NCBI GenBank assembly: GCA_021324265.1
Contig: JAJPJK010000009.1
Coordinates: forward strand, 802-64,801
Origin: Thermoproteota archaeon
Lineage (GTDB): Archaea > Thermoproteota > Thermoprotei > Gearchaeales > Gearchaeaceae
Direction: 5' to 3'
DNA length: 64,000 bases
Positions 32,261 to 50,361 of the stretch are shown here, piece after piece; position 1 is the stretch's first letter; every line of letters starts with the position of its first letter. The notes beneath the pieces are model-generated. The model had not been told where the DNA came from. It saw nothing but the letters and a program-made list of their open reading frames with translations, and did not search any database. The position numbers and the translations under genes are program-made.

Positions 32261-32361
32261 GCAGGGGTTCCCTAGCCTGGTCAAAGGGGCGGGGCTTAGG
32301 ATGCTATGCATAAGACACCCCGTGGCTTAGGCCTTCGTGGGTTCAAATCCCACCCCCTGCA
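32261..32361 (+). tRNA. tRNA-Leu (UAG) with 16-nt intron at canonical 37/38 position
   Basis: 101 nt. Acceptor GCAGGGG/CCCCTGC, D stem CCCT/AGGG, anticodon stem CGGGG/CCCCG interrupted after CTTAGG(A) by about 32301-32316, long variable arm TGGCTTAGGCCTTC, T arm GTGGG-TTCAAAT-CCCAC. Confidence 0.85.
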
Positions 32362-34217: not shown

Positions 34218-34442
34218 ATCCTTTCCATCCAAAAGTTATTGTATCTTGAACCATTTGTTTGTCTTTCAATAAGCATTGCAATGAATTATCTTCTATTTGA
34301 TTATTTAAATTTTTGAAAAACTAGCGAGCGAGCCTAAGGAGTTTGGCCTGATTTTCCTTAAAAAATTGTTACATTGGATCTCAAGAGACCATATGAGCAT
34401 GAATGAATCATTGAACTATGAAAAAAGTTTTATATTTTGAAA

Positions 34443-34499
34443 TGAGCACTGGGAATAAATAGTAAAGGATTAGCTTTAGATGAAGCTGGCCAGTGCTCA
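34443..34499. repeat. perfect 10-bp inverted repeat (TGAGCACTGG / CCAGTGCTCA) with 37-nt loop containing a nested 5-bp hairpin
   Basis: Read directly. Arms at 34443-34452 and 34490-34499. Inner AGCTT..AAGCT. Located in the 357-bp spacer between glmS and the accessory cluster. Confidence 0.6.
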
Positions 34500-34574
34500 A
34501 TAAATGAAGCTAAAGGCCACTATCTTTAAATATAGTTAGATTTATATCCTCCAGCCGAATAATATAAAAGGATC

Positions 34575-34901
34575 ATGCTCACGTACCTCGATATATATTC
34601 AACTTATAAAAATTTGATTCGTAAAAAGTTGTGGAATAGATTAGATAAATTTGATAAAGCTTTTGTGTTATCATGTTTGAAACTAAGTAAAATTAAAAAG
34701 ATTTTCAATTTTGAGATCATAAATACATTTAAAAATATAATAAGTAAAATAGCTAACTTCAGAAGCCGCATGACAGAAAAGGGTAGGAAAATAGCAGAGA
34801 ATGCAATGACAGGAAGCGTAGCGATGATACTTGGAAAGCTCAGAGATTGGTATCACGACTCGAATTACCAATTTTGGCTAGGTCTAGCGCTTACAAAATA
34901 A
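34575..34901 (+). CDS. hypothetical protein (108 aa)
   Basis: First ORF of the all-plus-strand cluster; basic, Lys-rich. No motif recognised. Confidence 0.35.
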   Translation: MLTYLDIYSTYKNLIRKKLWNRLDKFDKAFVLSCLKLSKIKKIFNFEIINTFKNIISKIANFRSRMTEKGRKIAENAMTGSVAMILGKLRDWYHDSNYQFWLGLALTK

Positions 34902-34923: not shown

Positions 34924-35388
34924 TTGAAAAGAAAATTTATATTGTTATCAATATTTTTATTATTCATTATATTAAGTATAAATATTAAAATATTAAATGC
35001 TCAAAACGATAACTTTTTAGATCAATTCGAAAAAGCTTATACAGCGCTATACAATGCAGAGCTCAATGGAGGAAATATAACGGAGCTTTACTACAAATTG
35101 AACCAATCCTTAGCTATCTATGAAGAAGCTCAGCAATATAAGCAAAGAAATAGCACGCTTTACAACGAGCTCATCGATAATGCTACAAAGATATTGAATG
35201 AGGTAATGAGCAATGTTGCAAATGTTGAAGCACAAGGAATTGCTACTACCAATAATAGAATACTAGATTTTTCGCTAGAAATGGTTTCCTTAGTAATAGC
35301 GGGAATATTAGTCTACATCTACATGCCAAGGATAACGCTCTACATATGGTTAAAGATCCATTCGAAGTGGAAGGTTGTTAAGAAATGA
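34924..35388 (+). CDS. secreted, C-terminally anchored helical protein (154 aa)
   Basis: TTG start. Signal peptide MKRKFILLSIFLLFIILSINIKILNA-Q. 4 N-x-S/T sequons. C-terminal TM SLVIAGILVYIYM. Confidence 0.5.
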   Translation: MKRKFILLSIFLLFIILSINIKILNAQNDNFLDQFEKAYTALYNAELNGGNITELYYKLNQSLAIYEEAQQYKQRNSTLYNELIDNATKILNEVMSNVANVEAQGIATTNNRILDFSLEMVSLVIAGILVYIYMPRITLYIWLKIHSKWKVVKK

Positions 35389-35873
35389 TAGAAGAGAAGA
35401 TCACTTTAGCAACGCTAGCAATAATAGCGTTAATAGCCTTGGCGCTCATATTTCAGTTCGTCAATCCAAGCTTTTCCGAGCCCTTTTCTGAGCTCGCCAT
35501 ACTAGGCCCTGACATGAAGCTAACAGGCTACCCCCACGAAGTATCTGTAGGAGAGAACTTCACGCTTTATTTATTTGTTGGCAACCATGAAGGACATACG
35601 ATGTTCTATGAAGTTATGGTAAAGTTGGTAAACAACCAAACAACGCTTAGCACATCGAGCCCACTAAATGCTAGCGTGCTAGCTACTTATTACTTCATAA
35701 TCATGAACAACCAGAACGCAACCAAAAAGATTGTGCTTTCAATACCATATGAAGGAACGAATTTGAGGCTCGTCTTCGAACTCTGGGCCTTCTCAGCATC
35801 GAGCAACTCATTCTATTATAAAGGCATCTCGACGTATATCTGGCTTAACGTAACAGCTAGTAAGAGTGTCTGA
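35385..35873 (+). CDS. membrane-anchored protein matching the extracellular half of DUF1616
   Basis: N-terminal TM, then FSELAILGPDMKLTGYPHEVSVGENFTLYLFVGNHEGHTMFYEVMVKL. This resembles the TEFYILG...YP...GNHE... block of DUF1616 as I recall it. 5 sequons. Confidence 0.5.
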   Translation: MIEEKITLATLAIIALIALALIFQFVNPSFSEPFSELAILGPDMKLTGYPHEVSVGENFTLYLFVGNHEGHTMFYEVMVKLVNNQTTLSTSSPLNASVLATYYFIIMNNQNATKKIVLSIPYEGTNLRLVFELWAFSASSNSFYYKGISTYIWLNVTASKSV

Positions 35874-36444
35874 AAAGGAAATAGAAAACTATATCCTGAA
35901 AGCTTCAAGTAAGGTAGCCACGCTTGTTGATCTCGTAGAAGAAACTTCTAGGGCATTTTCTATACCTAAGTACAAAGTCCTGAGAGTTCTGAGCAGGCTA
36001 GTGGACGAAGAGAAGATATACATTCAGAATCCAAAAATTCCAAATTCTTTTATGCAATATCTCCTATCCTCATATTCGCAATGGTTTTTACTAGTTGTTT
36101 TAGCAGATTTCATGACATTGGCATCGATATACCTATTGCCTCAGACCTTTCCTGTAATACTAATAAGATATTTTTTCTCAGGGCTTTTCCTGCTCTACCT
36201 CCCAGGCTACACTCTCATAGAGGCTCTTTTCCCAAAGAAGGAAGATATGGGAAGCATAGAGAGATTCGCGCTTTCCGTGAGTTTAAGCCTCGCCATTGCA
36301 CCGCTAATAGGATATATTTTCAATTTCACAGTATGGGGCATAAGGCTAGAACCTATAGCTACAGCACTGACCATATGGATAATGTGCTTTGCTATACTAG
36401 CGCTGATGAGAAAATATTATTACTTCAGACTCGCTAATATTTAG
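35866..36444 (+). CDS. wHTH-like N-terminus plus membrane half of DUF1616
   Basis: GTG start. LPGYTLIEALFPKKEDMGSIERFALSVSLSLAIAPLIGYIFNFTVWGIRLEP matches the DUF1616 PGY...ALFP...IER...TPWGIRL membrane block. Confidence 0.55.
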   Translation: MSEKEIENYILKASSKVATLVDLVEETSRAFSIPKYKVLRVLSRLVDEEKIYIQNPKIPNSFMQYLLSSYSQWFLLVVLADFMTLASIYLLPQTFPVILIRYFFSGLFLLYLPGYTLIEALFPKKEDMGSIERFALSVSLSLAIAPLIGYIFNFTVWGIRLEPIATALTIWIMCFAILALMRKYYYFRLANI

Positions 36445-36447
36445 CGC

Positions 36448-37155
36448 ATGCGCAGTATAAACTCCATATTGGGCTTATCATTTTCAGTATTCGGTGCATT
36501 ATTCGCAATTTTCAATTACTTTATAACTTACAGTGCACCGCTTATTTCGACAGGCCTAGCCATCATGATCATAGGAATAGCTCTAAGCCTAATTCCTGAT
36601 TCTTCTATAACCCAAAGAACTCTCAAGAGCATGCTTCACAGCTCAATGTTAAATATTGAGGCCATACTGGAACACTTCGATATCAAGAATAGCGCAGTTT
36701 ATGTCCCCACAAAAGATAAAAATGTTGTAGCGTACATACCTATCTATACTAACCCTCATACTCCTAGCATTGAATCATATTATAATGCACCTAAGTCAAT
36801 ACTCACAAGGCTAGGTGATACACCTGCAATCATGATATTACCTCCGGCCTCCGAAATTACTCAGTCAGAGGAAATTTCTAGAGAGGCCAGCCTAGAGGAA
36901 AGTTTGAATTATATCATATGTGAATTATGCGAATTGAGCGACTCCGTAAAATTGGTAGAAAAAGGAGATGAGATCATTCTGGAATTTAAAAATATAAAAT
37001 TCATGCCAGAAGCTGCGAGATTTAAGCTCTGTTTAGGATCTTTGCATAGCAGCATCGCAGCATGCGTGATTGCCATTGAAAAAGAAAGAGCAGTTTCAAT
37101 AATTGAAGATAATGGAGATTTGAGAAAAAACATCGTTAAAATGAAACTATACTGA
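36448..37155 (+). CDS. membrane protein (2 N-terminal TM helices plus about 170-aa soluble domain), unknown function
   Basis: Hydrophobic N-terminus LGLSFSVFGALFAIF / LISTGLAIMIIGIALSLI. 3-nt gap from the upstream gene. Confidence 0.45.
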   Translation: MRSINSILGLSFSVFGALFAIFNYFITYSAPLISTGLAIMIIGIALSLIPDSSITQRTLKSMLHSSMLNIEAILEHFDIKNSAVYVPTKDKNVVAYIPIYTNPHTPSIESYYNAPKSILTRLGDTPAIMILPPASEITQSEEISREASLEESLNYIICELCELSDSVKLVEKGDEIILEFKNIKFMPEAARFKLCLGSLHSSIAACVIAIEKERAVSIIEDNGDLRKNIVKMKLY

Positions 37156-37394
37156 TGGAAAGAAGTTATCAGTTCATATTCGCCTTAATGGTCTTGATGT
37201 TTGCGAGCATTGTAGTTCTAGAGCTAGAAAACGTTACGGACCTGGGAGTGTATCTTACAGTTTTCGCTTTTGAGTACATAGTCCTAGATGAAATGTTTAA
37301 AGTCAGAAAAATAGCCTTTGATTTCCTTAAATTAGCACTATTTGTTATTTTTGTATACATCGTCGCTATTAGAATTATTAACATATTAGTTTGA
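37155..37394 (+). CDS. small membrane protein (79 aa)
   Basis: Hydrophobic segments FIFALMVLMFASIVVL, YLTVFAFEYIVL and LALFVIFVYIVAI. 1-nt overlap upstream and 4-nt overlap downstream. Confidence 0.4.
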   Translation: MERSYQFIFALMVLMFASIVVLELENVTDLGVYLTVFAFEYIVLDEMFKVRKIAFDFLKLALFVIFVYIVAIRIINILV

Positions 37395-39274
37395 AAATTA
37401 GAAAAGTAGTTATATCTTTTTTTGTGATTATATTAATTTTATTATCTTTATTCATGTTCAACAATCCTATCCAACAAGTATACATAAGCATTCAGACATC
37501 CCTAAATCCTTCTACGGCCAATGAGAGCATTCCTTCCTCTATCGCACTTCTTCAAATTTATAATGGTATTTTCTCTTCGATAAACGAAGAAAATTTTACA
37601 AAAGCTAAAGATTCAATAAGCAGTTTAAATTTTGCTTACTTTCCTTCCAAATTTAAATTTATAGTAAATAGATTTAATTCTCTATTGAATATGACAATTG
37701 ATGATCTATCATTAATAAAGAATTACATTGAAAAAGCTAATAAGGCTTTAAAAATTGGAAATCTCACAAAGGCAAAAGAAATAATTGATGAGGCTAACAA
37801 GACCTATGAGGACGCAAATGCAACAATAAACGAACTTTTTTTGGCATTAAACAGTTTTTCATCCTCTATCAATGTGCCTTTAGCAACGATGCAGAGTAAT
37901 CTGGAGAATTTAAAACAGAAACTCGATTCCTATCTTCAAGAGATTTTAGAGCTCAGCGAAGAAATAATGGCATATTCAATGCTCAAGCCAGTGAGCCTGA
38001 TCATTGAAACAACGGTAACAAGCGTATGGACAGGCGGAACAATTGATATCTACGGCAATCTTACGAGTAATGGAACTGCTCTGGCTGGCAAAAAAATAAG
38101 CATATTTATAGATACGAAGAATGTCACGAGCATAAATACTGATGCCGAAGGCAGGTTTGTGTTCACGTATAGCCTACCATACATTTACAGAGAAAAATTA
38201 GAGATCTTCGCCTCCTATATTCCTAGTGGACAGGATGCGAATGTCTATGCCCCTGCAATTTCGAACACGTTGTTCATTAACATCCAGTATTATAAACCGA
38301 GCATAGAGATAACATACCCCCAAGTTGTGCTACCATCAAAAATCTACACTTTTGAAGGCTACGTATTGCTAAATGAAACCTATTTGGATAATATCAAGGT
38401 ATTGCTTAAGTTTCAGAATCAAACGTGTTTAGCGCAAACCAATAAGGGCTATTTCAGCTGCGAACTTGAGATACCTTCAAATGTGCAAGAAGGAAATTAC
38501 ACCTTTCACGTCTCTACCTATCCTAATGGAACGATAGGCCCGTTTAGCAATGATTACATGATCGAAGTCAAGAAACTAGATTTGGACATAAACCTTAATT
38601 ATTCAGGAATAACCATTGCCGGCTTAAATGTTGTCATAGATGGTTCAGTTTCATTAAATAATACACCTGTGTCCAATGCGCAGATACTCTTACTAAATTA
38701 CCTATCAGCCAATTCCACATACACTGATTCTCAAGGTAGGTTCAAAATCAGTGTACCCATAAGTGCGCTCTACTTCGGTTGGGACTACGAGATACTAATA
38801 AAGATATCACCTGCATTGCCATACGCGAAGGATAAAACTGTAATTGCGAGGGTTTACGTCTTTAATGGATTCACCATGGCATCTCTGATAATACTAACAT
38901 CGGTTTCTTCATACATGATTTATTCATACAGCCGTAAGAAGAAGCCTGAAAGGAAGGAAGAAAAGGAGATTGTAAAGGAAGAGCCTGAGGAGACCGTTGT
39001 GGTCCATGAAAAAGCCTACAGCGGAATATTGAAGATATATTATTTAGCTACTTCTTTAGCGGAGAAAGTTTCTGGTATAAAACTCCTTAAGCACTATACA
39101 ATTAGAGAATACTGCAATATGATTGAAAATAAGATCAGAGCCTTTCCTTCTTTTCTTGAGATTTCCATGCTTACAGAGAAACATCTTTACTCTGGAGAGG
39201 CTGAAGATGAGAAAGACATAAAGAAGGCAGAAGAGGAATACAGAAGGCTAGAAGAAGAGAATGGTGGACTTTAG
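37391..39274 (+). CDS. large sequon-rich surface protein: N-terminal anchor, helical region, three beta-sandwich-like modules, TM helix, cytoplasmic DUF4129-like tail
   Basis: TTG start. 16 N-x-S/T sequons. Repeated DAEGRFVFTYSLP / DSQGRFKISVP (CarboxypepD_reg-like) modules. TM MASLIILTSVSSYMIY followed by a KKKPERKEEKE stop-transfer. Tail HYTIREYCNMIE...EKHLYSGE resembles DUF4129. Confidence 0.55.
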   Translation: MKIRKVVISFFVIILILLSLFMFNNPIQQVYISIQTSLNPSTANESIPSSIALLQIYNGIFSSINEENFTKAKDSISSLNFAYFPSKFKFIVNRFNSLLNMTIDDLSLIKNYIEKANKALKIGNLTKAKEIIDEANKTYEDANATINELFLALNSFSSSINVPLATMQSNLENLKQKLDSYLQEILELSEEIMAYSMLKPVSLIIETTVTSVWTGGTIDIYGNLTSNGTALAGKKISIFIDTKNVTSINTDAEGRFVFTYSLPYIYREKLEIFASYIPSGQDANVYAPAISNTLFINIQYYKPSIEITYPQVVLPSKIYTFEGYVLLNETYLDNIKVLLKFQNQTCLAQTNKGYFSCELEIPSNVQEGNYTFHVSTYPNGTIGPFSNDYMIEVKKLDLDINLNYSGITIAGLNVVIDGSVSLNNTPVSNAQILLLNYLSANSTYTDSQGRFKISVPISALYFGWDYEILIKISPALPYAKDKTVIARVYVFNGFTMASLIILTSVSSYMIYSYSRKKKPERKEEKEIVKEEPEETVVVHEKAYSGILKIYYLATSLAEKVSGIKLLKHYTIREYCNMIENKIRAFPSFLEISMLTEKHLYSGEAEDEKDIKKAEEEYRRLEEENGGL

Positions 39275-40220
39275 GATAGTTATCTTGAGCGGTGTCGCAT
39301 CATTATTGCTTTCTCTAACGATGGTTTATTATTATCCGTATATATCCGCAATTCCGCAGCCTGATTTTTATCCCCAAAATAACTCATGGAACGGACTGAT
39401 GGACTTCGTTAGAACCTACAATGCCTCGATAATCACAGACCTCAATGACCTACCGATCAAGGGTAGCGGCTTTGATCTATTCATAGTTGGACCGTATTAC
39501 AATTTCACTGTCGATGAAACGAATAGAATAAAAGATTTCTTAGCGAGCGGAGGAAAACTGATCATTGCTGACAATTTCGGTAGCGGAAACTCTCTTCTAA
39601 CATATCTTGGGCTTGATAGTAAATTTTCAAAGAAAACTGTCAATGATGCCGTATTCTATGTAAGAAACAGCATGATAATCGAATCATTGAATTCCTCCAT
39701 TCCCAATGTCAAGGTACTTGCCTTTGGGCCTGCAAGCTATGTAGAGGTAAATGACACAAGTGCAAAGGTCCTGGCATGGTCTAGCTCCTTCAGCTATGTT
39801 GAAGAAGGAAATTCTGAAAAGACCGGCCCTTTCCCCTTAATTGTAAGTATAGAATATTTGAATGGATCCATCATTCTTGTATCAAGTCCTACAATCTTCA
39901 CCAACTATTTCCTCACGCTCTATGACAACGCTTATGCAGTTAAATTCTTAGCAAATGGGAAGGTAATACTATTTACCTCAAAGCTCAAATATAGCATGCT
40001 TTACAACTTCTGGTATGCCGAAAATGAGTTCATAATCTCCATGAAGAGCGCTGGTGTTGACTTCATAGTCTTTTCTCTTTTATCCTTGGGGGTATTCATT
40101 ACACTAATTTATGAACCTAGAAGAGAGAAAATCGTTGATAAACTGACTGCTTTAATAAACGAGCACCCGGATTGGGATATAAATATCTTAAAGAGATTAA
40201 AAGAGGATATTGAGAAATGA
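39261..40220 (+). CDS. DUF4350-like membrane-anchored extracellular protein
   Basis: N- and C-terminal TM helices. GGKLIIADNFGSGNSLLTYLGL block. 6 sequons. Sits upstream of moxR as in DUF4350-MoxR-DUF58 clusters. Confidence 0.5.
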   Translation: MVDFRIVILSGVASLLLSLTMVYYYPYISAIPQPDFYPQNNSWNGLMDFVRTYNASIITDLNDLPIKGSGFDLFIVGPYYNFTVDETNRIKDFLASGGKLIIADNFGSGNSLLTYLGLDSKFSKKTVNDAVFYVRNSMIIESLNSSIPNVKVLAFGPASYVEVNDTSAKVLAWSSSFSYVEEGNSEKTGPFPLIVSIEYLNGSIILVSSPTIFTNYFLTLYDNAYAVKFLANGKVILFTSKLKYSMLYNFWYAENEFIISMKSAGVDFIVFSLLSLGVFITLIYEPRREKIVDKLTALINEHPDWDINILKRLKEDIEK

Positions 40221-41146
40221 ACAGGCAGATCGTTAAGAACTTGCTGGAAAGTATCAGCTCAGTAATTATCGGACAGGAAGAAACGATACAAAAACTACTT
40301 GCATGCACACTTGCTGAAGGCCATGCGTTACTTGAAGGGCCTCCGGGTGTGGGTAAGACAACACTGGCAAAAGTGCTCTCTATTTGCTTAGGGGGAGCTT
40401 TTAGGAGAATACAGATGACTCCAGACCTTCTTCCGAGCGATATAATAGGCTCAAGCTATTTTGACGTAAAGGAAGGGGTATTCAAAATAAGACAAGGGCC
40501 AATATTCGCGAATGTACTGCTAATAGATGAGCTCAATAGGGCATCACCCAGGACTCAATCTGCTTTACTCGAAGCTATGCAAGAAAGGCAGGCAACGATT
40601 GAAGGAAATACATTCTCATTACCAAGGCCCTTCATAATAATAGCCACACAAGGTCCAAGCGCAATAGCAGGGACTTTTCCTCTAACAGAAGTACAGCTAG
40701 ATAGGTTTGCAATGAAGTTGATAAGTGGAATACCTTCAAGAGAAATAGAGAAGAAAATAGTCGCAAATATAGATGAAATAGAGCAATTAAAGATAAAACC
40801 TGTACTTACTTTAAGTGATGCCATAAGGTTAATTGATGAAGCAAAAGGAATTAAGATTTCTGAAAGAATACTTGACTATATATTGAATATAATAGAGCAA
40901 ATCCGTAATGATAAAAGAATAAGACTCCCTCCAAGCCCTAGAGCTTCGATATGGCTTTATAAAATAGGCAGGGTCTTCGCTTACTTAGATGGAAGAAACT
41001 ACATGATACCTGATGATGTGAAACGCATAGCGCATGAGGTCCTGAGACATAGAATATATTTGAAGACAGAATGGGAACTTGAGGGGATTGAACCAGATAC
41101 GATAATAAGGGAGACACTAGAAAGCGTCGCAGTTCCACGTGAATGA
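40217..41146 (+). CDS. moxR: MoxR-family AAA+ ATPase
   Basis: Walker [10 protein letters not shown], Walker B LLIDELNRA, TQSALLEAMQERQ; 309 aa. Confidence 0.9.
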   Translation: MNRQIVKNLLESISSVIIGQEETIQKLLACTLAEGHALLEGPPGVGKTTLAKVLSICLGGAFRRIQMTPDLLPSDIIGSSYFDVKEGVFKIRQGPIFANVLLIDELNRASPRTQSALLEAMQERQATIEGNTFSLPRPFIIIATQGPSAIAGTFPLTEVQLDRFAMKLISGIPSREIEKKIVANIDEIEQLKIKPVLTLSDAIRLIDEAKGIKISERILDYILNIIEQIRNDKRIRLPPSPRASIWLYKIGRVFAYLDGRNYMIPDDVKRIAHEVLRHRIYLKTEWELEGIEPDTIIRETLESVAVPRE

Positions 41147-42441
41147 TTAACTTTACAAAGCTAGGAAAATTACTTTTTTCAATAGATCTATCCTCGATAT
41201 TAATATCTTTATTTTTTTCAAATTACTATCTTTTAGCGATCTTTATAATTTCTTTTTTTATATTAATTTATGACTATCTCGATGCAAGAAAAATCTTGAC
41301 AAAGCCTCCCATAGAAATCATGCCAAATCGACTTTCGAAGAGCGTTATAAGAGGAGAAGTGCTACATATGGACCTCAAGTTCAAATCTAAAAGAAATTTT
41401 GAACCAGTTAATACCAAAGAATTCAAAATAGAAAAGAAAAACGATACGCTAAGCATTCAACTAAATGCCGACAGGATTGGCACGAAAGTTTTGAATGAAA
41501 TAAAAATCAAAATGCCCAGTAAGCTAAAACTATTCAACATAGAAACTAGTGCAAAACTTGAGCTGGAAATACGCATAAAACCAAAAATCGTGGCCATAGC
41601 TATGGAGATCTTGGGTATTCTTGAGGGCTTGAGAAAAGGCAGAGGAGGCATGATGATGGGGGAGACGGTTTCTAGGTTCATCGGTCATGGCTTTGAATAT
41701 CTGGGTTCAAGGGAATATCACCCCGGAGATGATTTGAGAAGAATAGATTGGAAGGCAACTGCTAGGAGGTTTCAGTTAATGATTAAGGAATTCCATCGAG
41801 AAATGGGAGGAAGGATAGGTTTGATATATTCAAATTACAACATAGGTCCGAATACGAATGACGATATGGTTTCAGATTTTTTGCTCATTTTACTGAATGC
41901 AGCAAAAGAAGATATACCTGTAAAGGTAACGATGATAGAAAACGGACAAATTATAGATATTCCTGTTTCCGATCCTACGGAGATACTTGCAATCTGTCTA
42001 GATAGATTACTTAAATACAGTGGAGTATCCTATGAGGAAATTTATCAGATAATTGAGGAAGACCCTTACTTCAGAGATTTTAAGCTCATGAATCTTGAAA
42101 GATTCCAAGAATTCGTTAAGCTCTCAAAAGAAAAAGTAATGAGAGATGCCAAAATAGGAAAAAATTTCATGTCATTTTTTGAACCCGAAAATAGCAATGA
42201 AACTGAAGCAATTATTATATTTTCAAGTCTTATCAAGGATTCAAGACTGATCTCTAGCTCTGCTCTAATGATGAGATTTCCGAACGTAAGGCTCTACATA
42301 GCATATCATTCCAAACCATGGCTTGATGCAAAGAATCTTGAGGAGGCCTATTTGATGTACAAAAAGATGAACAGCGTGCTAAATTATTTAACCAAAATAG
42401 GTTGCGAAACACTAGCTGTACCAATACTCAAACCCAAATAG
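41143..42441 (+). CDS. DUF58-domain protein (MoxR partner, vWA-related)
   Basis: Two N-terminal TM helices. Signature GSREYHPGDDLRRIDWKATAR. ATGA overlap with moxR. Confidence 0.8.
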   Translation: MINFTKLGKLLFSIDLSSILISLFFSNYYLLAIFIISFFILIYDYLDARKILTKPPIEIMPNRLSKSVIRGEVLHMDLKFKSKRNFEPVNTKEFKIEKKNDTLSIQLNADRIGTKVLNEIKIKMPSKLKLFNIETSAKLELEIRIKPKIVAIAMEILGILEGLRKGRGGMMMGETVSRFIGHGFEYLGSREYHPGDDLRRIDWKATARRFQLMIKEFHREMGGRIGLIYSNYNIGPNTNDDMVSDFLLILLNAAKEDIPVKVTMIENGQIIDIPVSDPTEILAICLDRLLKYSGVSYEEIYQIIEEDPYFRDFKLMNLERFQEFVKLSKEKVMRDAKIGKNFMSFFEPENSNETEAIIIFSSLIKDSRLISSSALMMRFPNVRLYIAYHSKPWLDAKNLEEAYLMYKKMNSVLNYLTKIGCETLAVPILKPK

Positions 42442-42442
42442 C

Positions 42443-43333
42443 TTGGAGAAGTTCAACATAGTAGCGATCCTTCCAGCTTATAACGAGGAAGGAAAGATAG
42501 CGAAGGTTTTGGTAAAGACTCTCAAGCATGTATCGAAGGTAATCGTTGTAGATGATGGTTCAAATGACTATACAGCGGAGATAGCTGAAAGGATGGGAGC
42601 AATTGTTTACCGCCATGGAGAGCGCTTGGGAAAAGGAGAAGCTCTTAAAACAGGCTTCGAAATCGCTAAAAAACTGGGCGCAGATATCATCGTTACGCTC
42701 GATGCAGACGGCCAGCATGATCCGGATGAGATACCTCTTGTAATTGAGCCTATAATGAAAGGTGAGGCGGATATCGTGATAGGATCTAGGACTCTATCCA
42801 ATTCCAAAATACCTACAATAAGGAAGATTGGGAATGATGTATTGAACAAGGTAACGAACATAGCTTCAGGGCTGAAGCTAACCGATACGCAGAGTGGCTT
42901 CAGGGCTTTTACTAGGAAGGCTATCGAGATGATCGAGGTCAAGGATCATGGCATGGGAGTAGAATCGCAGATCCTTATTGATGCAGCAGATAAAAAGCTA
43001 AGGATAAAGGAGGTGCCTATAAGCGTTAAGTATGGCAAGGATACCTCTACATATAACTTCCTAAAGCACGGCTCGTATGTCTTCATCGTCATATTGAGGA
43101 CGATTATAGAGAGAAGCCCATTGCTCTATCTAGGGCTTCCTGGCATAGCTGTTGGAGCCGTTGGCCTCGCGCTCACGATATGGTTGCTCGCTCTTTACAA
43201 TACCGAGCGATACTTCAGCATACCTCTCGCTATTCTAGCTCTTGGAGGCATACTGCTAGGCGTAATACTAGTAGTTACTGCACTTCTTTTATATGCGATA
43301 AACAACCTGCATGCAAGGCTAAGAAGAGTATGA
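42443..43333 (+). CDS. family-2 glycosyltransferase, dolichyl-phosphate hexose synthase-like
   Basis: TTG start 1 nt after the DUF58 stop. ILPAYNEE, VVDDGSNDYT, LDADGQHD (DxD). Two C-terminal TM helices as in GtrB/DPM1-type enzymes. Confidence 0.85.
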   Translation: MEKFNIVAILPAYNEEGKIAKVLVKTLKHVSKVIVVDDGSNDYTAEIAERMGAIVYRHGERLGKGEALKTGFEIAKKLGADIIVTLDADGQHDPDEIPLVIEPIMKGEADIVIGSRTLSNSKIPTIRKIGNDVLNKVTNIASGLKLTDTQSGFRAFTRKAIEMIEVKDHGMGVESQILIDAADKKLRIKEVPISVKYGKDTSTYNFLKHGSYVFIVILRTIIERSPLLYLGLPGIAVGAVGLALTIWLLALYNTERYFSIPLAILALGGILLGVILVVTALLLYAINNLHARLRRV

Positions 43334-44505
43334 AGAAAATAACGATTATATCGCAGTACTGGGAGCCAGATATGAATGGAGATGTAGTCAGGCTGAAGAA
43401 TTACATTGGATTGCTGCTAAAGCTTGGATTCGAGATAACGCTCATAACTGCGATACCCAACTATCTAACATATAAAAGGAAAGAAGCCAAGGTTGGGATC
43501 GAAAAAAGAGAAAGGCTCAAGATAATAAGGTTATGGATGCCCAAGCTTGTGCACAAAGGATTGGCTAGTAGGCTAATTCTATATTTGAGCTTCATGATAT
43601 TCGCTTCGCTACCTACATTGATCTATGCTAGGAAAAGCTATATTTGGGCATTCTCTCAGAGGGTCTTCTCAACACTCGCCGCATTGCCTGCGAAGCTGCT
43701 ATTCAGAGTTAAGCTTTATTCGGATATAACAGATATTTGGCCTGAAGCGTTGATCAATACGGATTATGCCAGTGAGGATTCATTATTCTATAAAATGGGT
43801 AGATTCATAGCAAAGATAGCCTATAGATCCAGCGATAAGATCCTTGTGCTAAGCGAAGATATGAAGAAGCAAATCGCCAATCGATATGGTTTAGATCCAA
43901 AGAGGGTATTTGTATTGGAGAACTTCATGCCGAGCAGAGAAATAGATTTACCAAACATGAACGGAGAGCTCAGAGTGCTTTATTATGGGAATCTTGGAAA
44001 GAACTACGATTTCGATGCGATAATTGAGCTGGCAAAGGAACTTAAGCGAGAAAAGATCAAGTTCATCATCATAGGATCTGGGGAGATGGAATATGAAATC
44101 ATTGAGAACATAAAAAGGAACGGGCTCACAAATGTTGAATTCATCAACAGGATGCTTGAAGAAGCAAAGCTAAAAGCCTTTGTTAAGGATGCACAAGTTT
44201 TAATTTTGCCTATGCGTCATCAAGTCATAGAGGACGTCTCATTCCCAACGAAATTAATAGACTATCTCCATTCAGGCAGGGTAATACTTTACATAGGGAA
44301 TGGATATTGCTTAAGGCTAATTAATGGCCATAAGGCAGGAATTGGACTAGATAAGTTCGAGAAGGAAAAGCTTGTTGATTTCCTAAGAACGTTAAGTAAT
44401 AACGCTGAGATGATAAAGGAATATGCAACGAATGCAAAAAGACTTGCGGAAGAGATGTTTTCTGAAATGAACGCCACTGCGAAAATTAAAATCCTCTTTC
44501 AGTGA
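43330..44505 (+). CDS. family-4 (GT-B) glycosyltransferase
   Basis: Start at ATG 43330 (MKKITIISQYWEP), ATGA overlap with the GT2 stop. C-terminal GT-B pattern LILPMR...FPTKLIDYLHSGRVIL. Confidence 0.8.
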   Translation: MKKITIISQYWEPDMNGDVVRLKNYIGLLLKLGFEITLITAIPNYLTYKRKEAKVGIEKRERLKIIRLWMPKLVHKGLASRLILYLSFMIFASLPTLIYARKSYIWAFSQRVFSTLAALPAKLLFRVKLYSDITDIWPEALINTDYASEDSLFYKMGRFIAKIAYRSSDKILVLSEDMKKQIANRYGLDPKRVFVLENFMPSREIDLPNMNGELRVLYYGNLGKNYDFDAIIELAKELKREKIKFIIIGSGEMEYEIIENIKRNGLTNVEFINRMLEEAKLKAFVKDAQVLILPMRHQVIEDVSFPTKLIDYLHSGRVILYIGNGYCLRLINGHKAGIGLDKFEKEKLVDFLRTLSNNAEMIKEYATNAKRLAEEMFSEMNATAKIKILFQ

Positions 44506-46208
44506 TGGCGAATAACATAACAGTCCTAGGAATCAACGACGGCCACGATTGCGGTGCAGCGCTCATAAGAAACGGAAAGATATTGGCGGCCGTTCAAGAG
44601 GAGAGGCTATCGAACATAAAGCATCACAGCGGAACACCGAAGTTAGCGATAAGGGAGGTATACAAGATAGCTGGCATAGATCCAAAGGAAACGAATGCAA
44701 TAGCGATCGTTAGCCTGAATAGAGTTTACTCTCCACTTGAGGAATACCCTCTTAAAGTTAGGATTTTCGAAAAGGCTTCAAGATTCTTTCACGGCAAGAG
44801 CTTCGCTAAACTATATGTTTCTATACTTCACAAGTTCAGACCAATAAAGGAGTTGATGGAAATATTTAGCGAGCTTGGCATAGAGGATAAAGAAGTTAGA
44901 TTTGTTGAGCACCACTTAGCGCATGCTTCATGCGCTTATAGAACAAGCCCTTGGGGCTATGATAAGCCAGTCTTAGTTATGACCTCAGATGGCGCAGGAG
45001 ATGGAGTTTCAGCCACTGTCAATATTGCAGAGAAAGGCGAGATAACTAGGATAGCATGGTCAACGTTCTACAATTCGCTAGGCAACGCTTTCTATAGCGA
45101 GATAACTCGCTATCTTGGCATGAAGCCCTGGGATCACGAATACAAGGTCATGGGTCTTGCGCCATATGGCAAGCCTGAACTTTGCTTGGAAAAGATGAAG
45201 AAGATCATAAGGATAAATCCGAAGAACAAGCTAGAATTCGAGAATACATTCGGTTCTTATCTCAAATCGATGCAGCCAAAGCTTAGGAAGCTCCTAGCAT
45301 ATGAGAGATTTGATAACATCGCAGCAGCATGCCAGCTATATTTCGAGATGCTCGTATGTGAATGGGTAGAGAATGCCATAAAGAAAACGGGAATAAGTCA
45401 TGTTGCCTTCGCAGGAGGTAACTTCTTGAATGTCAAAGCAAACAAGAGGATTTTGGAGCTAGAAAGCGTTGAAGATGCCTTTTTCTATCCAGCATGCGGA
45501 GATGATGGAACACCTGTTGGCGCAGCTTTGCAGGCCTATTATGAAATATGCAAAGAAGAAGGCATAAAGCCTGAGTTCCATCCACTTGAAGATCTTTACT
45601 ATGGACCTAGTTATGATGACGAGGAAATAAGAGAGGTGCTTAAGAAAGAGGGAATGCTTGAAAAAGCTGAGAAATATAGCGATATAAATGGCGTTGTAGG
45701 CGAAATGCTCACCAAAGGGAAAATAGTGGCGAGATTTGATGGGAGGGTTGAATGGGGACCAAGGGCACTGGGCAATAGAAGTATACTTGCAGATGCAAGG
45801 GATTTCAGAGTGATTAGGAAATTGAACAGCGCGATAAAACAAAGAGATTTCTGGATGCCCTTCGCTCCTACGATACTCGAGGAAAGGATTGATGAATACC
45901 TTATCGATGCGAGGCCAGCTAGATATATGATACTCGCTTTCGATACCACTGAAAAGCGAGATGAGATCATCGCTGCAATACATCCCCAAGATTTCACTGC
46001 AAGGCCACAAACGTTAAATGATTGGAACGAAGGATATAGGAAGATATTAAAGGAATTCGAAAATATAACAGGTGTTGGAGGGATTCTCAATACCAGCTTC
46101 AATCTCCACGGCTATCCCATCGTAGGTACACCTGAGCTAGCAATATGGACACTTAAGAACTCTGGACTTGAGTATTTAGCAATTGGAAGCTACTTGGTAA
46201 GGAAGTAA
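44502..46208 (+). CDS. NodU/CmcH-family carbamoyltransferase
   Basis: LGINDGHDCGAALI, QEERLSNIKH, EHHLAHA, GPRALGNRSILAD, NTSFNLHGYPIV. Start is GTG 44502 or ATG 44505. Confidence 0.9.
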   Translation: MMANNITVLGINDGHDCGAALIRNGKILAAVQEERLSNIKHHSGTPKLAIREVYKIAGIDPKETNAIAIVSLNRVYSPLEEYPLKVRIFEKASRFFHGKSFAKLYVSILHKFRPIKELMEIFSELGIEDKEVRFVEHHLAHASCAYRTSPWGYDKPVLVMTSDGAGDGVSATVNIAEKGEITRIAWSTFYNSLGNAFYSEITRYLGMKPWDHEYKVMGLAPYGKPELCLEKMKKIIRINPKNKLEFENTFGSYLKSMQPKLRKLLAYERFDNIAAACQLYFEMLVCEWVENAIKKTGISHVAFAGGNFLNVKANKRILELESVEDAFFYPACGDDGTPVGAALQAYYEICKEEGIKPEFHPLEDLYYGPSYDDEEIREVLKKEGMLEKAEKYSDINGVVGEMLTKGKIVARFDGRVEWGPRALGNRSILADARDFRVIRKLNSAIKQRDFWMPFAPTILEERIDEYLIDARPARYMILAFDTTEKRDEIIAAIHPQDFTARPQTLNDWNEGYRKILKEFENITGVGGILNTSFNLHGYPIVGTPELAIWTLKNSGLEYLAIGSYLVRK

Positions 46209-48070
46209 TGCAGATAGAAGTATTTGAAAGGAGAGTAAGAGAGCTATTGGATAAAATACTTGTTAGGAAGTTTGCTTTCTATGCACTTGGCCTTGTAACT
46301 GCGCTGAACATAGCAATGGCGCTATTTTTGCTGAGTAGATTCGTAATCACGTTTTACTTCTATTTCTTGAACCTCCTTGGATTGAACATTGGCCTAGTAG
46401 CATATCTAGGCTTGGATAGAATAAAGGTGCTTAAGGAGATAAAAATGGGTAGTAAAGTCAATGCTGCATTACTTTTACTTTTCATTTCTTTTATGTTCAT
46501 TTCTTATTTATCAATACTTTATAGCGTAAACTACAGATCTATTTACTACTATATTTTCACGACGCTAGCATTCTTCACTATACTTCCAAGAATTTTCTTC
46601 GATGAAATGAAGAAGAGAAATGCAATGATCATACTCATGCAACTCATGGCACTGAGCTTTCTTGAAAGGATAAGCCTTTTCATCATGCACGACTTTCCAC
46701 CTTGGTGGGATCCATATTTTCATTACGCAACAAGCTTAACTGTATATAATAATGCCCACATTCCTAATCTAGCTGGCTATACGTATTTTCCGCTCTATTA
46801 TATTTTCAACAGCGAGATATGGCTCATGATCTTTGGTGATACTAGCATGAATTATATTGTTATAAATGCGCTCATACTAGTTATATCTTTGATTTTACCT
46901 TATTTGATCGCTGAAAGGATCACAAAAAGCGAACGAGCTGGGGTATTCGCAAGCACTTTGATTATGATAGTATATAATTTCTTCGGCATGACTAACTTCC
47001 AGACCCCCCATCCTTTCTCGTTTACCTTAGCAATGCTCTCGATTTATTTGCTTTACAGGATAATCTTTGAAGGAATTAATTACAGGCTCATAGGTATTTT
47101 CTTAATCTCATCGATAGGGTCCTTCATATTCCACCCAAGTGGAGGCCTTTTCTTGAGTTATCTTAGCATAGGCTTAATTATATTCAGGATGCTTTTCAAT
47201 GTTAGGAGATACTTGGTGTTTTTAATATTCCCTTTATTCGTATTTTTATACTTAATTAACCTAGCTCAGAATCAATTAGGCTATTATATATCACTTTCAT
47301 TTGGTGCGCAAGGCCTTAGCGTAGAAAACCCCGTATATCCTGGCTTCAGTTCAACTTTCGCACAGATAACATTTTACACACTTTCGCATTTCTGGTATTT
47401 CGCAGTTGCATTCTTTACTGCGTTGGGACTATTTACCCTCATATTGAGCAATAAGAAAAACTATTTTTTACCCGTGCTAGCTGTTATCGCAGTACTTCCT
47501 ACAACTACATTGTTCTTCACAGGGAGAGCTGTGGCAGAAACAATTGGAACAGGATTCATAGTACTTGCAGAGGTATTGTTGGGAGGAATTGCGCTTAGAA
47601 GCACTTTCAAAAAAACAATAGCTATATTCTTCATAATTCTATTAACCTTTTCCTTCTTTTCTTCTACGTTACTAAGCGATGATGCTCCGTATTTCGGCAA
47701 AGCAATTAATGGAAATTATACTTATTACATCCAACAAACTTATTACACGAATGAACAAAGCATAAGTGCAGCAAGCTTGCTTGTGAATAACATGCAAGGA
47801 AACATATTAGTCAACTCCACAGATGATAGAGCTTTTGCTGCATGTTGCTCAATATCAGTGAAAGGATATGTTCACTTAGATCCTTCGATTTATGTGGTCA
47901 GTAACAATACATACTATTTCATTAGCTACTACATAACCTCTCGATGGCCAGCTCTTCCTCCACAGGCATATGAAAATTTCGCAAGAAATATGACAGCAAA
48001 TCCTAATGTTAATTTGATTTATTCAAATGGAGATACTATAATCTTCTTCTCGAGCATTCATAAGAAGTGA
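46208..48070 (+). CDS. large polytopic membrane protein with C-terminal extracellular domain (candidate GT-C-type transferase or glycan polymerase)
   Basis: 620 aa. More than 10 hydrophobic segments, then a C-terminal domain of about 110 aa with sequons. ATG overlaps the upstream stop by 1 nt. Confidence 0.45.
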   Translation: MQIEVFERRVRELLDKILVRKFAFYALGLVTALNIAMALFLLSRFVITFYFYFLNLLGLNIGLVAYLGLDRIKVLKEIKMGSKVNAALLLLFISFMFISYLSILYSVNYRSIYYYIFTTLAFFTILPRIFFDEMKKRNAMIILMQLMALSFLERISLFIMHDFPPWWDPYFHYATSLTVYNNAHIPNLAGYTYFPLYYIFNSEIWLMIFGDTSMNYIVINALILVISLILPYLIAERITKSERAGVFASTLIMIVYNFFGMTNFQTPHPFSFTLAMLSIYLLYRIIFEGINYRLIGIFLISSIGSFIFHPSGGLFLSYLSIGLIIFRMLFNVRRYLVFLIFPLFVFLYLINLAQNQLGYYISLSFGAQGLSVENPVYPGFSSTFAQITFYTLSHFWYFAVAFFTALGLFTLILSNKKNYFLPVLAVIAVLPTTTLFFTGRAVAETIGTGFIVLAEVLLGGIALRSTFKKTIAIFFIILLTFSFFSSTLLSDDAPYFGKAINGNYTYYIQQTYYTNEQSISAASLLVNNMQGNILVNSTDDRAFAACCSISVKGYVHLDPSIYVVSNNTYYFISYYITSRWPALPPQAYENFARNMTANPNVNLIYSNGDTIIFFSSIHKK

Positions 48071-48120: not shown

Positions 48121-48825
48121 ATGATTGTTCCTTTAGAGTATTTAAATAAAAAGTATTTTAAAGCTATGATTAAGAATCCATACCAAATAAGATTTTTTAT
48201 AGATTTGGTTCAAAGAGAACAAAAATTATACAGAATTCTAGAAGCAAGTACCAAGGAAATAAAATACAACTTGAGCAAGGCAGAGGAAATAAGGAGAGAA
48301 ATTTATGAAAAAATGAAAAACTATTCATATCATGGTGCAATGGTCTCTCCTCTGGAAGGCCCAATCATTTATTGCATAGTTAGAATTTTAAAGCCAGAGA
48401 TCGTTATCGAAACAGGCGTAGCTAATGGTGCATCATCCACATTCATCTTAAATGCTTTAGAAGAAAACAATAAAGGTAGGCTATACAGCATAGATCTTCT
48501 TTCAAAAGAGTTGCAAGTGAAAGAAAAAGAAATAGGATGGTTGATACCGAAAGAATTGAGGCATAGATGGAATTTACATCTTGGAGACAGCAAAGAATTG
48601 CTACCAAAGTTTTTGCAACAATTAGGATACGTTGATATATTTTTACACGATAGCTTGCATACTCTTGAACATGTATTATTCGAGCTTAGAATTGCCTCAG
48701 CTTATATTAAAAGCGGTATCTTAATAGCTGATGATGTACATCCAAGCTGGATAAATAAAATATGCAATGCTCTAAATATCGAAAAACATGAATTGTTCAA
48801 TGATTTATTAGTATTGAAGAAATGA
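48121..48825 (+). CDS. class I SAM-dependent methyltransferase (Methyltransf_24/CmcI-like)
   Basis: VIETGVANGASS motif I region, LYSIDL, DIFLHDSLHT. Confidence 0.65.
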   Translation: MIVPLEYLNKKYFKAMIKNPYQIRFFIDLVQREQKLYRILEASTKEIKYNLSKAEEIRREIYEKMKNYSYHGAMVSPLEGPIIYCIVRILKPEIVIETGVANGASSTFILNALEENNKGRLYSIDLLSKELQVKEKEIGWLIPKELRHRWNLHLGDSKELLPKFLQQLGYVDIFLHDSLHTLEHVLFELRIASAYIKSGILIADDVHPSWINKICNALNIEKHELFNDLLVLKK

Positions 48826-49169
48826 AGTATCTATCCAAATATCATCACGAGCTTAATGAAAAGGCATATACGAGACTCAACATAGAAGATAGTGATTTCA
48901 AAAAAAGACAAATAATATATCCTAAATATTATTTTAAGAGAACTAATAATAATATGGAAGGCTTGGCAAATTTTTTATTATATATGTATCAAAAAATCAG
49001 ATAAAAAATTAAAAATAGGCATATTTTAAATCTAGGTGCAGGAACAGGTTATCGAGATACAAACTTACTTTTAAAATTGCAAAATAAAGTCAAAGCATTA
49101 GATCTCTCCTACGAAAAAAGCGTTCAAATAAAATATTTTTATACTATAGATATTTACTTTAATTATTAA
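48822..49169 (+). pseudogene. decayed class I methyltransferase (in-frame TAA at 49002-49004 and 3' truncation)
   Basis: The 60-aa ORF is followed in the same frame, after the TAA, by KIKNRHILNLGAGTGYRD...VKALDLS (SAM motif I and post-I). The reading frame then ends at 49167-49169, far short of a full MTase. Confidence 0.55.
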
Positions 49170-49185
49170 TTTAATATTCAAAAAA

Positions 49186-50361
49186 ATGAAGATCTTACTT
49201 GTTTGTGAACAACCTCTGCCTTCTAAGAAGAGGGCAGGAAGACCGAATTATACGGTAAGGTATCTTGCAAAGAAAGGTCACGATATTACGGTTTTATGTC
49301 CAAGGACCCATGAAGAAGATGATGGTTTAGCTAGATATGAGTATATTAATATCGAGTTCAGGCAGTTCTCAATTATAAATAGAATAAAGATATTGAGAGA
49401 GTTTCAAAAAAAGATAAAAAAATTAATGTATTCAGAAAAGTTTGATATTATAAGAACAATAAATATTATACCGACGTATTCTTCATTAAATACTAAGATA
49501 CCTATATATTCAGAGATAAATGATTTTTTGAGCGATTTATATTTGCAATTCAATATGCCATTAAAGAATATTATTTCAAATTTTATCAAAATGATGGAGA
49601 ACAAAATTGCTAAAAAAATGTGTTATGCAAATGTGGAAACAGATGTTGGAAGGAGATTTTGGAAAGAGCTAGGGGCAAATGAGAAAAAGATCGCAGCAAT
49701 CCCGAATGGTGTGGATACAAAGCATTTCGATCCTTATAAAGCAAATGCAGAAGAAATTAGAGAGAAATATAAGCTTAATCATGCGAAGGTATTATTCTAT
49801 CATGGAGACATAGGATATTATGATGGTTTACATTTCCTTTTAAATATAATGGATAGAATAGACGCAAAATTCATGATTGTTGGTGATGGACCAAATGGCT
49901 ACTTGGATGAGCTTAGAAAGATCGCTTTGAAAAACAAGGTTGAAGACAAAATAATTTTCACAGGTTGGATTGACTATGGAATACTACCAAGTTATATCGC
50001 ATGCGCAGACTTATGTGCATTACCTTTGATACCTAAAACTAGGGAAAATAGAGCCGTTATACATTCAAAAATAAAGGAATATTTGAGCATGGGTAAGAAA
50101 TTTGTTGTAACTAGACTAGAAGGAATAGAATCAAGCTTGGGTAGTTTGCCATTTTATGTCAATGAACCATGGAATCGAGAAGAACTGTTAAATGTAATAA
50201 AAAGAGCATTTGAAGAAGAAAGAGATGTTGAAAAAATGAGGAGTATTGCTAAAATTCTGGACTGGGAAAACATAATAAATCAAGATGAAAAAGTAATGAA
50301 GGCAATTTTGGATGGAGAAGAAGACATAAGGAAATTCGATCTAAAGCTTGAGAATACTTAG
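49186..50361 (+). CDS. family-4 glycosyltransferase
   Basis: MKILLVCEQP N-terminus. C-terminal GT-B block MIVGDGP...LPSYIACADLCALP...SKIKEYLSMGKKFV. Confidence 0.8.
   Translation: MKILLVCEQPLPSKKRAGRPNYTVRYLAKKGHDITVLCPRTHEEDDGLARYEYINIEFRQFSIINRIKILREFQKKIKKLMYSEKFDIIRTINIIPTYSSLNTKIPIYSEINDFLSDLYLQFNMPLKNIISNFIKMMENKIAKKMCYANVETDVGRRFWKELGANEKKIAAIPNGVDTKHFDPYKANAEEIREKYKLNHAKVLFYHGDIGYYDGLHFLLNIMDRIDAKFMIVGDGPNGYLDELRKIALKNKVEDKIIFTGWIDYGILPSYIACADLCALPLIPKTRENRAVIHSKIKEYLSMGKKFVVTRLEGIESSLGSLPFYVNEPWNREELLNVIKRAFEEERDVEKMRSIAKILDWENIINQDEKVMKAILDGEEDIRKFDLKLENT

Follow-up and report, generated by a model that had tools for sequence, protein, structure and literature searches.

A 64,000-nucleotide (nt) stretch of the genome of a Thermoproteota archaeon (contig JAJPJK010000009.1 of GenBank assembly GCA_021324265.1, positions 802 to 64,801 of the forward strand; hereafter the window, whose own numbering is used below) carries an array of thirteen closely packed genes, g01 to g13, that runs from the components of a predicted membrane complex, including a MoxR-type AAA+ ATPase and a DUF58 protein, straight into glycosyltransferase (GT) genes. 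Comparison with related loci indicates that the array consists of two evolutionary units, A (34924-42441, led by a further small gene, g00) and B (42443-48070, and running on beyond that point). In the reading that we favor, at a probability of roughly 0.6, it is an end-to-end join of two independently conserved units, through which a surface complex and glycan enzymes would be co-expressed with their translation coupled. The thirteen genes, with protein lengths in amino acids (aa) and predicted transmembrane (TM) helices, are as follows.

34924-35388, + strand: g01, 154 aa, with a signal anchor, a helical ectodomain, a C-terminal TM helix and 4 N-glycosylation sequons
35385-35873, + strand: g02, 162 aa, with an N-terminal TM helix, a beta-rich ectodomain and 5 sequons; DUF1616 profile positions 157-287
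35866-36444, + strand: g03, 192 aa, with a cytoplasmic N-terminal domain of ~65 aa and 4 TM helices; DUF1616 profile positions 7-117
36448-37155, + strand: g04, 235-aa membrane protein; its orthologues weakly match DUF7982, the window protein has no Pfam match
37155-37394, + strand: g05, 79 aa, with two TM helices
37391-39274, + strand: g06, 627-aa surface protein with 16 sequons; Pfam matches just under cut-off
39261-40220, + strand: g07, DUF4350 (arCOG01314-type) membrane-anchored ectodomain protein with 6 sequons
40217-41146, + strand: g08, MoxR-type AAA+ ATPase, 48-51 % identical to its orthologues
41143-42441, + strand: g09, DUF58 protein with a TM hairpin, an immunoglobulin-like (Ig-like) beta-sandwich and an alpha/beta domain
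42443-43333, + strand: g10, GT2 polyprenyl/dolichyl-phosphate sugar transferase (AglJ/DPMS/ArnC-like); Pfam GT2 E 5e-29, 101.7 bits
43330-44505, + strand: g11, GT4 glycosyltransferase; Pfam Glycos_transf_1 and Glyco_transf_4
44502-46208, + strand: g12, O-carbamoyltransferase of the NodU/CmcH/TobZ/NovN type
46208-48070, + strand: g13, 620-aa membrane protein with ~12 TM helices; PMT_2 20.7 bits (cut-off 26.1)

First, the packing of the array is as a first-pass annotation of this DNA had described it: thirteen open reading frames (ORFs) on the plus strand between 34924 and 48070, separated by twelve near-zero junctions, all of whose coordinates were reproduced by the ORF listing and by direct reading of each junction. 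Within unit A, neighboring genes overlap by 4 nt at g01/g02 (ATGA at 35385), by 8 nt at g02/g03 (35866), by 1 nt at g04/g05 (37155), by 4 nt at g05/g06 (TTGA at 37391), by 14 nt at g06/g07 (39261), and by 4 nt at both g07/g08 (ATGA at 40217) and g08/g09 (ATGA at 41143); only g03/g04 has a spacer, of 3 nt (36445-36447). The two units meet at g09/g10, where a single nucleotide separates DUF58 from the TTG start of the GT2 at 42443. Within unit B, the overlaps are 4 nt at g10/g11 (ATGA at 43330), 4 nt at g11/g12 (GTGA at 44502, or 1 nt if the start is ATG at 44505) and 1 nt at g12/g13 (46208), and past 48070 a 50-nt gap leads to further glycan genes on the same strand. Compactness by itself is ordinary in this window, since 20 of the 41 other same-strand junctions are also 3 nt or less, as against 12 of 12 in the array. 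What is exceptional is the length of the run: the longest other series of tight junctions comprises three, and twelve in succession have a probability of ~2e-4 if junctions are assumed to be independent.

Second, unit A is a conserved module, and much more than a MoxR/DUF58 pair. Pfam backs the families that the first-pass annotation had named, namely DUF1616 (two genes), DUF4350, MoxR, DUF58, GT2, GT4 and carbamoyltransferase. The MoxR/DUF58 pair does not stand by itself; it is the 3′ end of a nine-gene module predicted in 2015 (Makarova, Galperin, & Koonin, 2015), composed of three genes that amount to one DUF1616 protein, two small membrane proteins, an Ig-like surface protein, DUF4350, MoxR and DUF58. 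The DUF1616 matches of g02 (E 1.3e-18, 67.7 bits) and g03 (E 5.4e-26, 91.9 bits) exceed the Pfam cut-off of 31.6 bits, and these proteins are 36-39 % (aligned from residue 1) and 39-43 % identical to their respective orthologues. Orthologues of g01 occur in three relatives (L002, L003, and L006; L-numbers denote loci of relatives), and this protein corresponds to the middle third of fused DUF1616 proteins, matching residues 174-285 of the 497-aa fusion in L010. Such fusions, single proteins of 493-497 aa in the order g02-g01-g03, are encoded in L010 (258-1751) and L108 (12125-13606), and both the split and the fused forms show a circular permutation of the Pfam profile, positions 157-287 preceding 7-117.

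The remaining six genes of unit A are similarly anchored by orthologues or domain matches. The g04 protein is 27-34 % identical to its orthologues at four loci, and g05 has an orthologue of 79-82 aa in the same position in L002, L003, L006, L010, L013, and L018. The predicted layout of g06, comprising a signal anchor, a coiled-coil, an Ig-like (CarboxypepD_reg-like) ectodomain, a TM helix at 484-502 and a cytoplasmic tail, is accompanied by colinear orthologues of 607-630 aa that are 25-28 % identical and weakly match DUF4129. The g07 protein matches DUF4350 with E 4e-16 (60.3 bits, cut-off 30.4) and has predicted TM helices at 1-19 and 265-283, while g08, overlapping g07 and g09 by 4 nt each, matches AAA_3 (E 7e-54, 181.6 bits) and AAA_lid_2 (E 3e-18, 65.9 bits). 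The DUF58 match of g09 scores 37.3 bits (cut-off 23.4), and the protein has an invariant REY..GD..IDWKATAR motif; in its AlphaFold2 (AF2) model, with a predicted local distance difference test score (pLDDT) of 73.5, residues 57-146 form an Ig-like sandwich (titin-type fold matches at probability 1.0), accompanied by the TM hairpin and, at the C-terminus, the alpha/beta domain. An NCBIfam scan returned no family match for g01, g04, g05, g07, or g09, and none reaching the cut-off for g06. By simple hydropathy prediction, most of g01, g02, g06, and g07 lies outside the cell, and no other proteins of the window reach the sequon (N-X-S/T) density of these four, which is 1.9-3.1 per 100 aa compared with ~0.4 in most others. 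Judging from these sequence features, their ectodomains are probably heavily N-glycosylated, and a Haloferax DUF1616 protein, HVO_2173, is an AglB-dependent glycoprotein (PMC8241124).

Across relatives, unit A behaves as a block. In a set of 5.8 billion proteins, the relatives of the DUF58 protein, from Nitrososphaerota and other archaeal metagenome-assembled genomes (MAGs), are only ~25-29 % identical, and a genome scan with this single protein as query found no relative. The genes g01-g09 nonetheless recur in the same order and sizes in L001-L003, L006-L010, L013, L021, and L022, and L018 holds the unit from the g04 orthologue onward; in ~10 distant archaeal loci the unit is colinear and always ends at DUF58. 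Wherever the downstream flank of these distant loci is long enough, DUF58 is followed, in convergent or co-directional orientation, by a MacB/FtsX-type ATP-binding cassette (ABC) transporter cassette of four genes: two permeases, a ~527-aa protein (518-536 aa) without a family match in the NCBIfam scan, and an ATPase. This ABC cassette is the most consistent neighbor of the MoxR module across distant archaea (L001-L003, L006-L010, L012, L018, L021, and L022). A search across the window found no such cassette, but only an unrelated ABC ATPase (29 % identity). Upstream, a Polysacc_synt-type flippase directly precedes unit A in L003 and L021.

Third, unit B is the head of a glycan island that is conserved in its own right and is present without unit A in L105-L113, L014, and L015. 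The predicted GT2, g10, has two TM helices, both C-terminal (228-246 and 264-282), and its best matches in the PDB are the Pyrococcus furiosus dolichyl-phosphate (Dol-P) mannose synthase (5mlz, E 3e-15) and ArnC (E 4e-13). It was not assigned to AglJ (TIGR04182), for its full-length score of 170 bits falls below the NCBIfam equivalog cut-off of 325 bits, and it is called AglJ-like only. The L017 and L018 orthologues of g11 can be aligned with it from the first residue. The carbamoyltransferase assignment of g12 draws on Pfam matches to both halves of the family, Carbam_trans_N (E 2e-41, 143 bits) and Carbam_trans_C (E 5e-54, 182.9 bits), as well as on full-length PDB matches to NovN, GdmN, and TobZ (E 1e-50 to 1e-59). 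For g13, named earlier simply as a 620-aa membrane protein, the ~12 predicted helices agree with that description. It is probably a GT-C (PMT_2-like) glycosyltransferase, as suggested by its L017 orthologue, which reaches 27.5 bits and passes the PMT_2 cut-off, and by PMT_2 matches in 8 of 40 relatives (best E 3e-8), with D168 invariant, in a family of ~190 representatives. A PDB sequence search with g13 gave no match, and an AF2 model built from a four-sequence alignment (pLDDT 39) was unusable. The order carbamoyltransferase, GT-C-like protein, methyltransferase, GT4, GT4, AsnB, GT4 is syntenic in L014, L015, and L016, and the synteny of g12-g18, which extends past the array, holds in L014, L015, and L105-L113. 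In the metagenome loci L105-L113, which have no unit A, the order is glmS ... GT2-GT4-epimerases-carbamoyltransferase-111aa-GT4-GT4-AsnB.

Fourth, the join of the two units is itself found again, once. The locus L017, the closest relative found, is 49 % identical in DUF58, 79 % in the GT2, 88 % in the carbamoyltransferase and 54 % in the GT-C protein, and reads DUF58-ATGA-GT2-TTGA-GT4, then an inserted epimerase, carbamoyltransferase and GT-C, all tightly packed. Other relatives combine the same elements differently. On the 1.36-Mb hot-spring scaffold L018, unit A, the ABC cassette (4.6 kb), a 111-aa gene and GT2-GT4-...-carbamoyltransferase succeed one another on the same strand; in L108, the fused DUF1616 gene and an ABC cassette (13775-18334) are inserted within the same glycan cluster, and no matches to g04-g09 (MoxR/DUF58/DUF4350) were found there. 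As a baseline, a genome scan with an alignment keyed on the IDWKATAR motif returned 80 DUF58 loci, mostly bacterial because the motif is generic: MoxR adjoins DUF58 in 67 of them, and a GT-type match lies within 3 kb downstream in none.

The earlier proposal that this adjacency ties MoxR/DUF58 to glycosylation therefore survives in a narrower form. It is not absent from every relative, a GT following DUF58 in L017 as in the window; in the distant relatives and in L018, on the other hand, the ABC cassette takes that place. Since modules in distant archaea, in ~10 loci without a GT, continue into the ABC cassette, since none of the 80 generic loci has a downstream GT, and since the glycan island exists separately, these comparisons indicate a link between MoxR and glycan genes that is recurrent but lineage-specific and that concerns the surface module as a whole, not a property of MoxR/DUF58. 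A link between MoxR/DUF58 and glycosylation had been thought undescribed, and our literature search likewise found no paper describing one.

How might such a join operate? Co-transcription of the whole array is plausible, and a promoter upstream of the leader gene at 34575 would probably drive it. No hairpin or oligo-T terminator was detected at any array junction, though by scanners of the bacterial type; a promoter and terminator scan of the same kind counted 59 promoter-like sites where 52 were expected and 5 terminator-like sites where 10 were expected, and its bacterial-type models are uninformative for an archaeon. Overlaps of 4 and 1 nt have been shown experimentally to support coupling by termination-reinitiation in archaea; they are also over-represented between genes whose products are subunits of heteromeric complexes (PMC6728339, PMC10666635), which fits unit A as a complex. 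In unit A, a cytoplasmic MoxR AAA+ ring, together with a membrane-tethered DUF58 adaptor, would assemble or remodel a membrane complex whose ectodomains (g01, g02, g06, and g07) would be exposed at the cell surface. Unit B would build a lipid-linked glycan: the AglJ/DPMS-like GT2 (g10) would load a sugar onto dolichyl phosphate, GT4s would lengthen the glycan, the TobZ/NodU-type g12 would O-carbamoylate a sugar, and the PMT_2-like GT-C (g13) would use the Dol-P-sugar at the outer face of the membrane. The ancestral arrangement would have been unit A followed by the MacB/FtsX ABC cassette; in the lineage of the window and L017, in which the cassette is absent from the locus, DUF58 abuts the GT2 (+1 nt in one, ATGA in the other), and this junction would extend the coupling into the glycan genes, placing surface complex and glycan enzymes on one message. 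Gene content, junctions, orthology and the variation in synteny are shown by the sequences themselves, whereas co-transcription, membrane topology, ectodomain glycosylation and any functional dependence between the units are inferred.

Several points weigh against the join of two co-expressed units. Direct fusion is seen in two organisms only, the window and L017, and counts as one evolutionary event because it was probably shared by descent. In the window (42383-42391) and in L017 (~1130-1140) alike, DUF58 contains a TATTTAA motif 52-58 nt before the start of the GT2, which could be either an internal archaeal TATA box or a coding coincidence; T6-T7 runs occur just inside g06 and g09. In both organisms the TATTTAA motif falls in the conserved Y-L-x-K codons of DUF58. 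Genes for surface proteins and for glycans may also cluster simply through sharing a variable cell-envelope island, and glycan genes are missing from the surroundings of the module in the Bathyarchaeota locus L022. As for individual assignments, the GT-C identity of g13 draws on a sub-threshold Pfam match and on orthologues, and among the top Foldseek matches of the g09 model, which cover only the Ig-like part, the vWA fold of DUF58 does not appear.

One alternative is accidental juxtaposition, in which unrelated neighbors in a variable envelope region were brought together when loss of the ABC cassette joined DUF58 to the GT2, and compaction tightened the junction. We regard this as a serious alternative, though as less likely than not. 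It would explain why nearly half of the window's other same-strand junctions are just as tight, why the arrangement differs among relatives (L018, L108, and L105-L113) and why no GT adjoins DUF58 in distant relatives or in generic DUF58 loci, and it is in keeping with the unlike GC content at third codon positions (GC3) of g09 (0.35) and g10 (0.46). It accounts less readily for the ATGA overlap that is kept in L017 despite divergence of DUF58 to 49 % identity, for the recurrence of module parts, arranged in three different ways, within the same glycan island or next to it, for the glycan flippase that adjoins the module in another lineage, or for the finding that the module's ectodomains are the most sequon-rich proteins of the window.

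At the other extreme, all thirteen genes could belong to a single dedicated pathway whose glycosyltransferases depend directly on the MoxR/DUF58 chaperone pair for their maturation or regulation. MoxR ATPases are generally seen as chaperones or maturases of specific partner proteins, and this general view, the twelve unbroken tight junctions and the conservation of the DUF58/GT2 junction in L017 all lend the idea some appeal. Yet MoxR and DUF58 always sit in the nine-gene membrane module, whether or not GTs are present, the glycan cluster occurs without them in L105-L113, L014, and L015, the two units are held apart in L018 by 4.6 kb of ABC-cassette genes, and GT-type matches are missing downstream of all 80 generic DUF58 loci. 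So direct a role is very doubtful.

Least probable of all is an artefact of gene calling, by which the overlaps would reflect only the choice of the longest ORFs and the true starts would lie downstream, behind ordinary spacers. The ORF listing does report longest ORFs, and five starts in the array are TTG or GTG; start codons were therefore compared with the N-termini of orthologues. In L002, L003, L006, L010, and L017, orthologues of g02, g04, g05, g07, g08, g09, and g10 align from residues 1-7, and the orthologous loci are themselves packed equally tightly, with the same kind of overlaps. For g11, the longest ORF begins at 43180, which would mean a 154-nt overlap with the GT2; the orthologues favor ATG at 43330, the start that had been assumed at the outset. 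With the signal anchors of g01, g06, and g07 lying at N-termini that must be included, and with the catalytic motif of the GT2 beginning as early as residue 9, the artefact was discarded, the match of orthologue N-termini to the starts being decisive. The same sequence is also present in the MAG assembly GCA_035294585.1, and a contig assembled from run SRR5579875 carries the same DUF58 gene.

Considering the upstream boundary, the thirteen tight genes stand as first delimited, but the array probably begins one gene earlier, across a 22-nt gap, and would then comprise fourteen.

34218-34574, + strand: intergenic region after glmS, 357 nt, the only sizeable non-coding gap before the array
34575-34901, + strand: g00, 108-aa basic helical protein, probable first gene of the array

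A TATA-like TTTATAT at 34541-34547, ~30 nt 5′ of the ATG at 34575, was read in the intergenic region, which is likely the promoter region of the array. The g00 protein is 43-48 % identical to the products of 111-113-aa genes in L018, in L108 (two copies) and in L105-L114, and has no family match in Pfam or NCBIfam scans. Besides the window copy at 34575-34901, copies lie at 9650-9985 in L018 and at 11764-12102 and 18895-19236 in L108. Genes of this family head varied sub-clusters of the envelope and glycan island, standing before DUF1616, before GT2 and before GT4s, and in L108 two of them bracket the insertion of DUF1616 and the ABC cassette. The family may represent a regulator, an adaptor or a recombination landmark.

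Downstream, the glycan genes run on well beyond the array.

48121-63613, + strand: continuation of the glycan island, with genes identified by Pfam and all on the plus strand, reaching at least 63.6 kb

This continuation encodes methyltransferases, GT4s, an AsnB-like amidotransferase, a GT2, a GFO/IDH/MocA oxidoreductase and a hexapeptide acyltransferase; no AglB/STT3 gene was found in the window region examined. GC3 falls along the island, from ~0.40-0.46 in g10-g12 to 0.29 in g14-g17 and ~0.2 in g18-g24, and its distal part (48121-62014) looks compositionally foreign or fast-evolving, like many variable surface-glycan clusters. Mobile-looking genes interrupt the glycan clusters of four relatives (L014, L015, L018, and L108). 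In L014 (4804-7469), the AsnB homologue is present as two ORFs with an HTH_23 gene between them, and MNT/HEPN (Polbeta/HepT) toxin-antitoxin-like genes are found among GT genes in L015 (5239-5744), L018 (14114-14935 and 19455-19988), and L108 (19283-20104). On the other side of the array, the window (31824-32225) and the distant relative L003 (294-839) each have a NifU-type iron-sulfur scaffold gene a few kb 5′ of the MoxR module, and this shared neighborhood may survive from an ancestral genomic position; the window also has SufB/SufD at 28690-31492. Between the NifU-like gene and glmS, a 101-nt tRNA gene (32261-32361) is recognized by Rfam, not by ARAGORN, and presumably contains an intron, which was taken to mark the window as archaeal.

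What could the association mean? The DUF4350/MoxR/DUF58/DUF1616 module is widespread in Archaea, its core also occurs in Actinobacteria, and it is projected to be ancient, and still it has remained function-less "dark matter" years after its prediction. A consistent genomic partner would be a lead to its function, and three are offered here: the glycan island, the MacB/FtsX ABC cassette and the leader protein. The hypothesis that results is one of glycoprotein or glycoconjugate assembly at the cell surface. In its fullest form, which we put forward as a speculation more likely wrong than right, the module would be an envelope machine acting on glycoconjugates, one that assembles, anchors or exports a glycosylated surface structure needing a dedicated Dol-P-sugar pathway. 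If true, this would explain why several Thermoproteota lineages have the module joined to, nested within or bordered by GT clusters, a flippase and a MacB-type exporter, and why a g00-family protein, as a shared regulator or adaptor, stands at the heads of sub-operons. If instead the units are mere neighbors within a variable envelope island, the locus remains a clear illustration of module fusion as a way of building operon-like arrays. It hints at a functional link and is better regarded as a useful clue to what an old "dark matter" system does than as a demonstrated new mechanism.

Among known systems, those of anti-phage defense have no significant match in the array: a PADLOC scan, which includes MoxR-vWA conflict systems, gave weak generic AAA+ matches for g08 only and none for DUF58, DUF4350, or DUF1616. 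Bat-type operons of Bacteroides and Borrelia have a MoxR-DUF58-vWA arrangement, with the BatA/BatB vWA-TM proteins and TPR proteins as their defining members. As in these operons, the MoxR ATPase of the array is directly followed by DUF58, but BatA/BatB vWA-TM and TPR proteins are absent from it. Membership was rejected, g00-g13 having no VWA, VWA_2, or BatA Pfam match and a GT2 following DUF58 instead. Another counterpart is the mycobacterial Rv3689-Rv3695 cluster (DUF4350 Rv3691, MoxR2 Rv3692, DUF58 Rv3693, with SpoIIM-like and RDD proteins), which has the same core order DUF4350-MoxR-DUF58 plus accessory membrane proteins, and whose type of genes is co-regulated as a block in M. chelonae (PMC8191103); it differs in being bacterial, in lacking DUF1616 and adjacent glycan genes, and in its other accessory proteins.

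On the glycan side, a lipid-phosphate sugar synthase and a GT-C enzyme are a classic pairing. The two-step systems of Haloferax AglJ with AglD/AglS, ArnC/ArnT, and GtrB/GtrC are resembled here by g10 (DPMS/ArnC/AglJ-like), which lies three genes before the PMT_2-like g13, with the difference that g10 is under the AglJ equivalog cut-off and that the GT-C fold of g13 is putative.

The nearest counterpart of unit A is the arCOG01314 (DUF4350)-centered archaeal putative secretion or membrane-remodeling complex predicted by Makarova, Galperin and Koonin (PMC5898192, section 3.2, Table 2), which a 2019 review still listed as uncharacterized (PMC6393860). Its parts are DUF4350, a MoxR/COG0714 ATPase, an Ig-like plus vWA/DUF58 protein, pfam07760 proteins, Ig-like surface proteins and small 2-5-TM proteins, and unit A is made of the same component families: g07 is a DUF4350 protein with an ectodomain and a C-terminal TM helix, g08 is the MoxR protein, g02 and g03 are pfam07760, and g09 combines the DUF58 signature with a modelled Ig-like sandwich, vWA not being among its top fold matches. 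A role of this system in secretion or membrane remodeling is a prediction of that work. Four features set the present loci apart, none of which is mentioned in section 3.2 or Table 2 of the 2015 paper: the division of DUF1616 among three genes, the 108-aa leader gene ahead of the module, the fusion of the module with a glycan island, and the MacB/FtsX ABC cassette found in relatives. Unit A belongs to an already predicted system, and the enzymes of unit B are ordinary; what look new against the literature searched are the fusion of unit A to the glycan island (shared with L017), the repeated finding of unit A, whole or in part, next to genes for glycans and for MacB-type export, and the g00 leader family.

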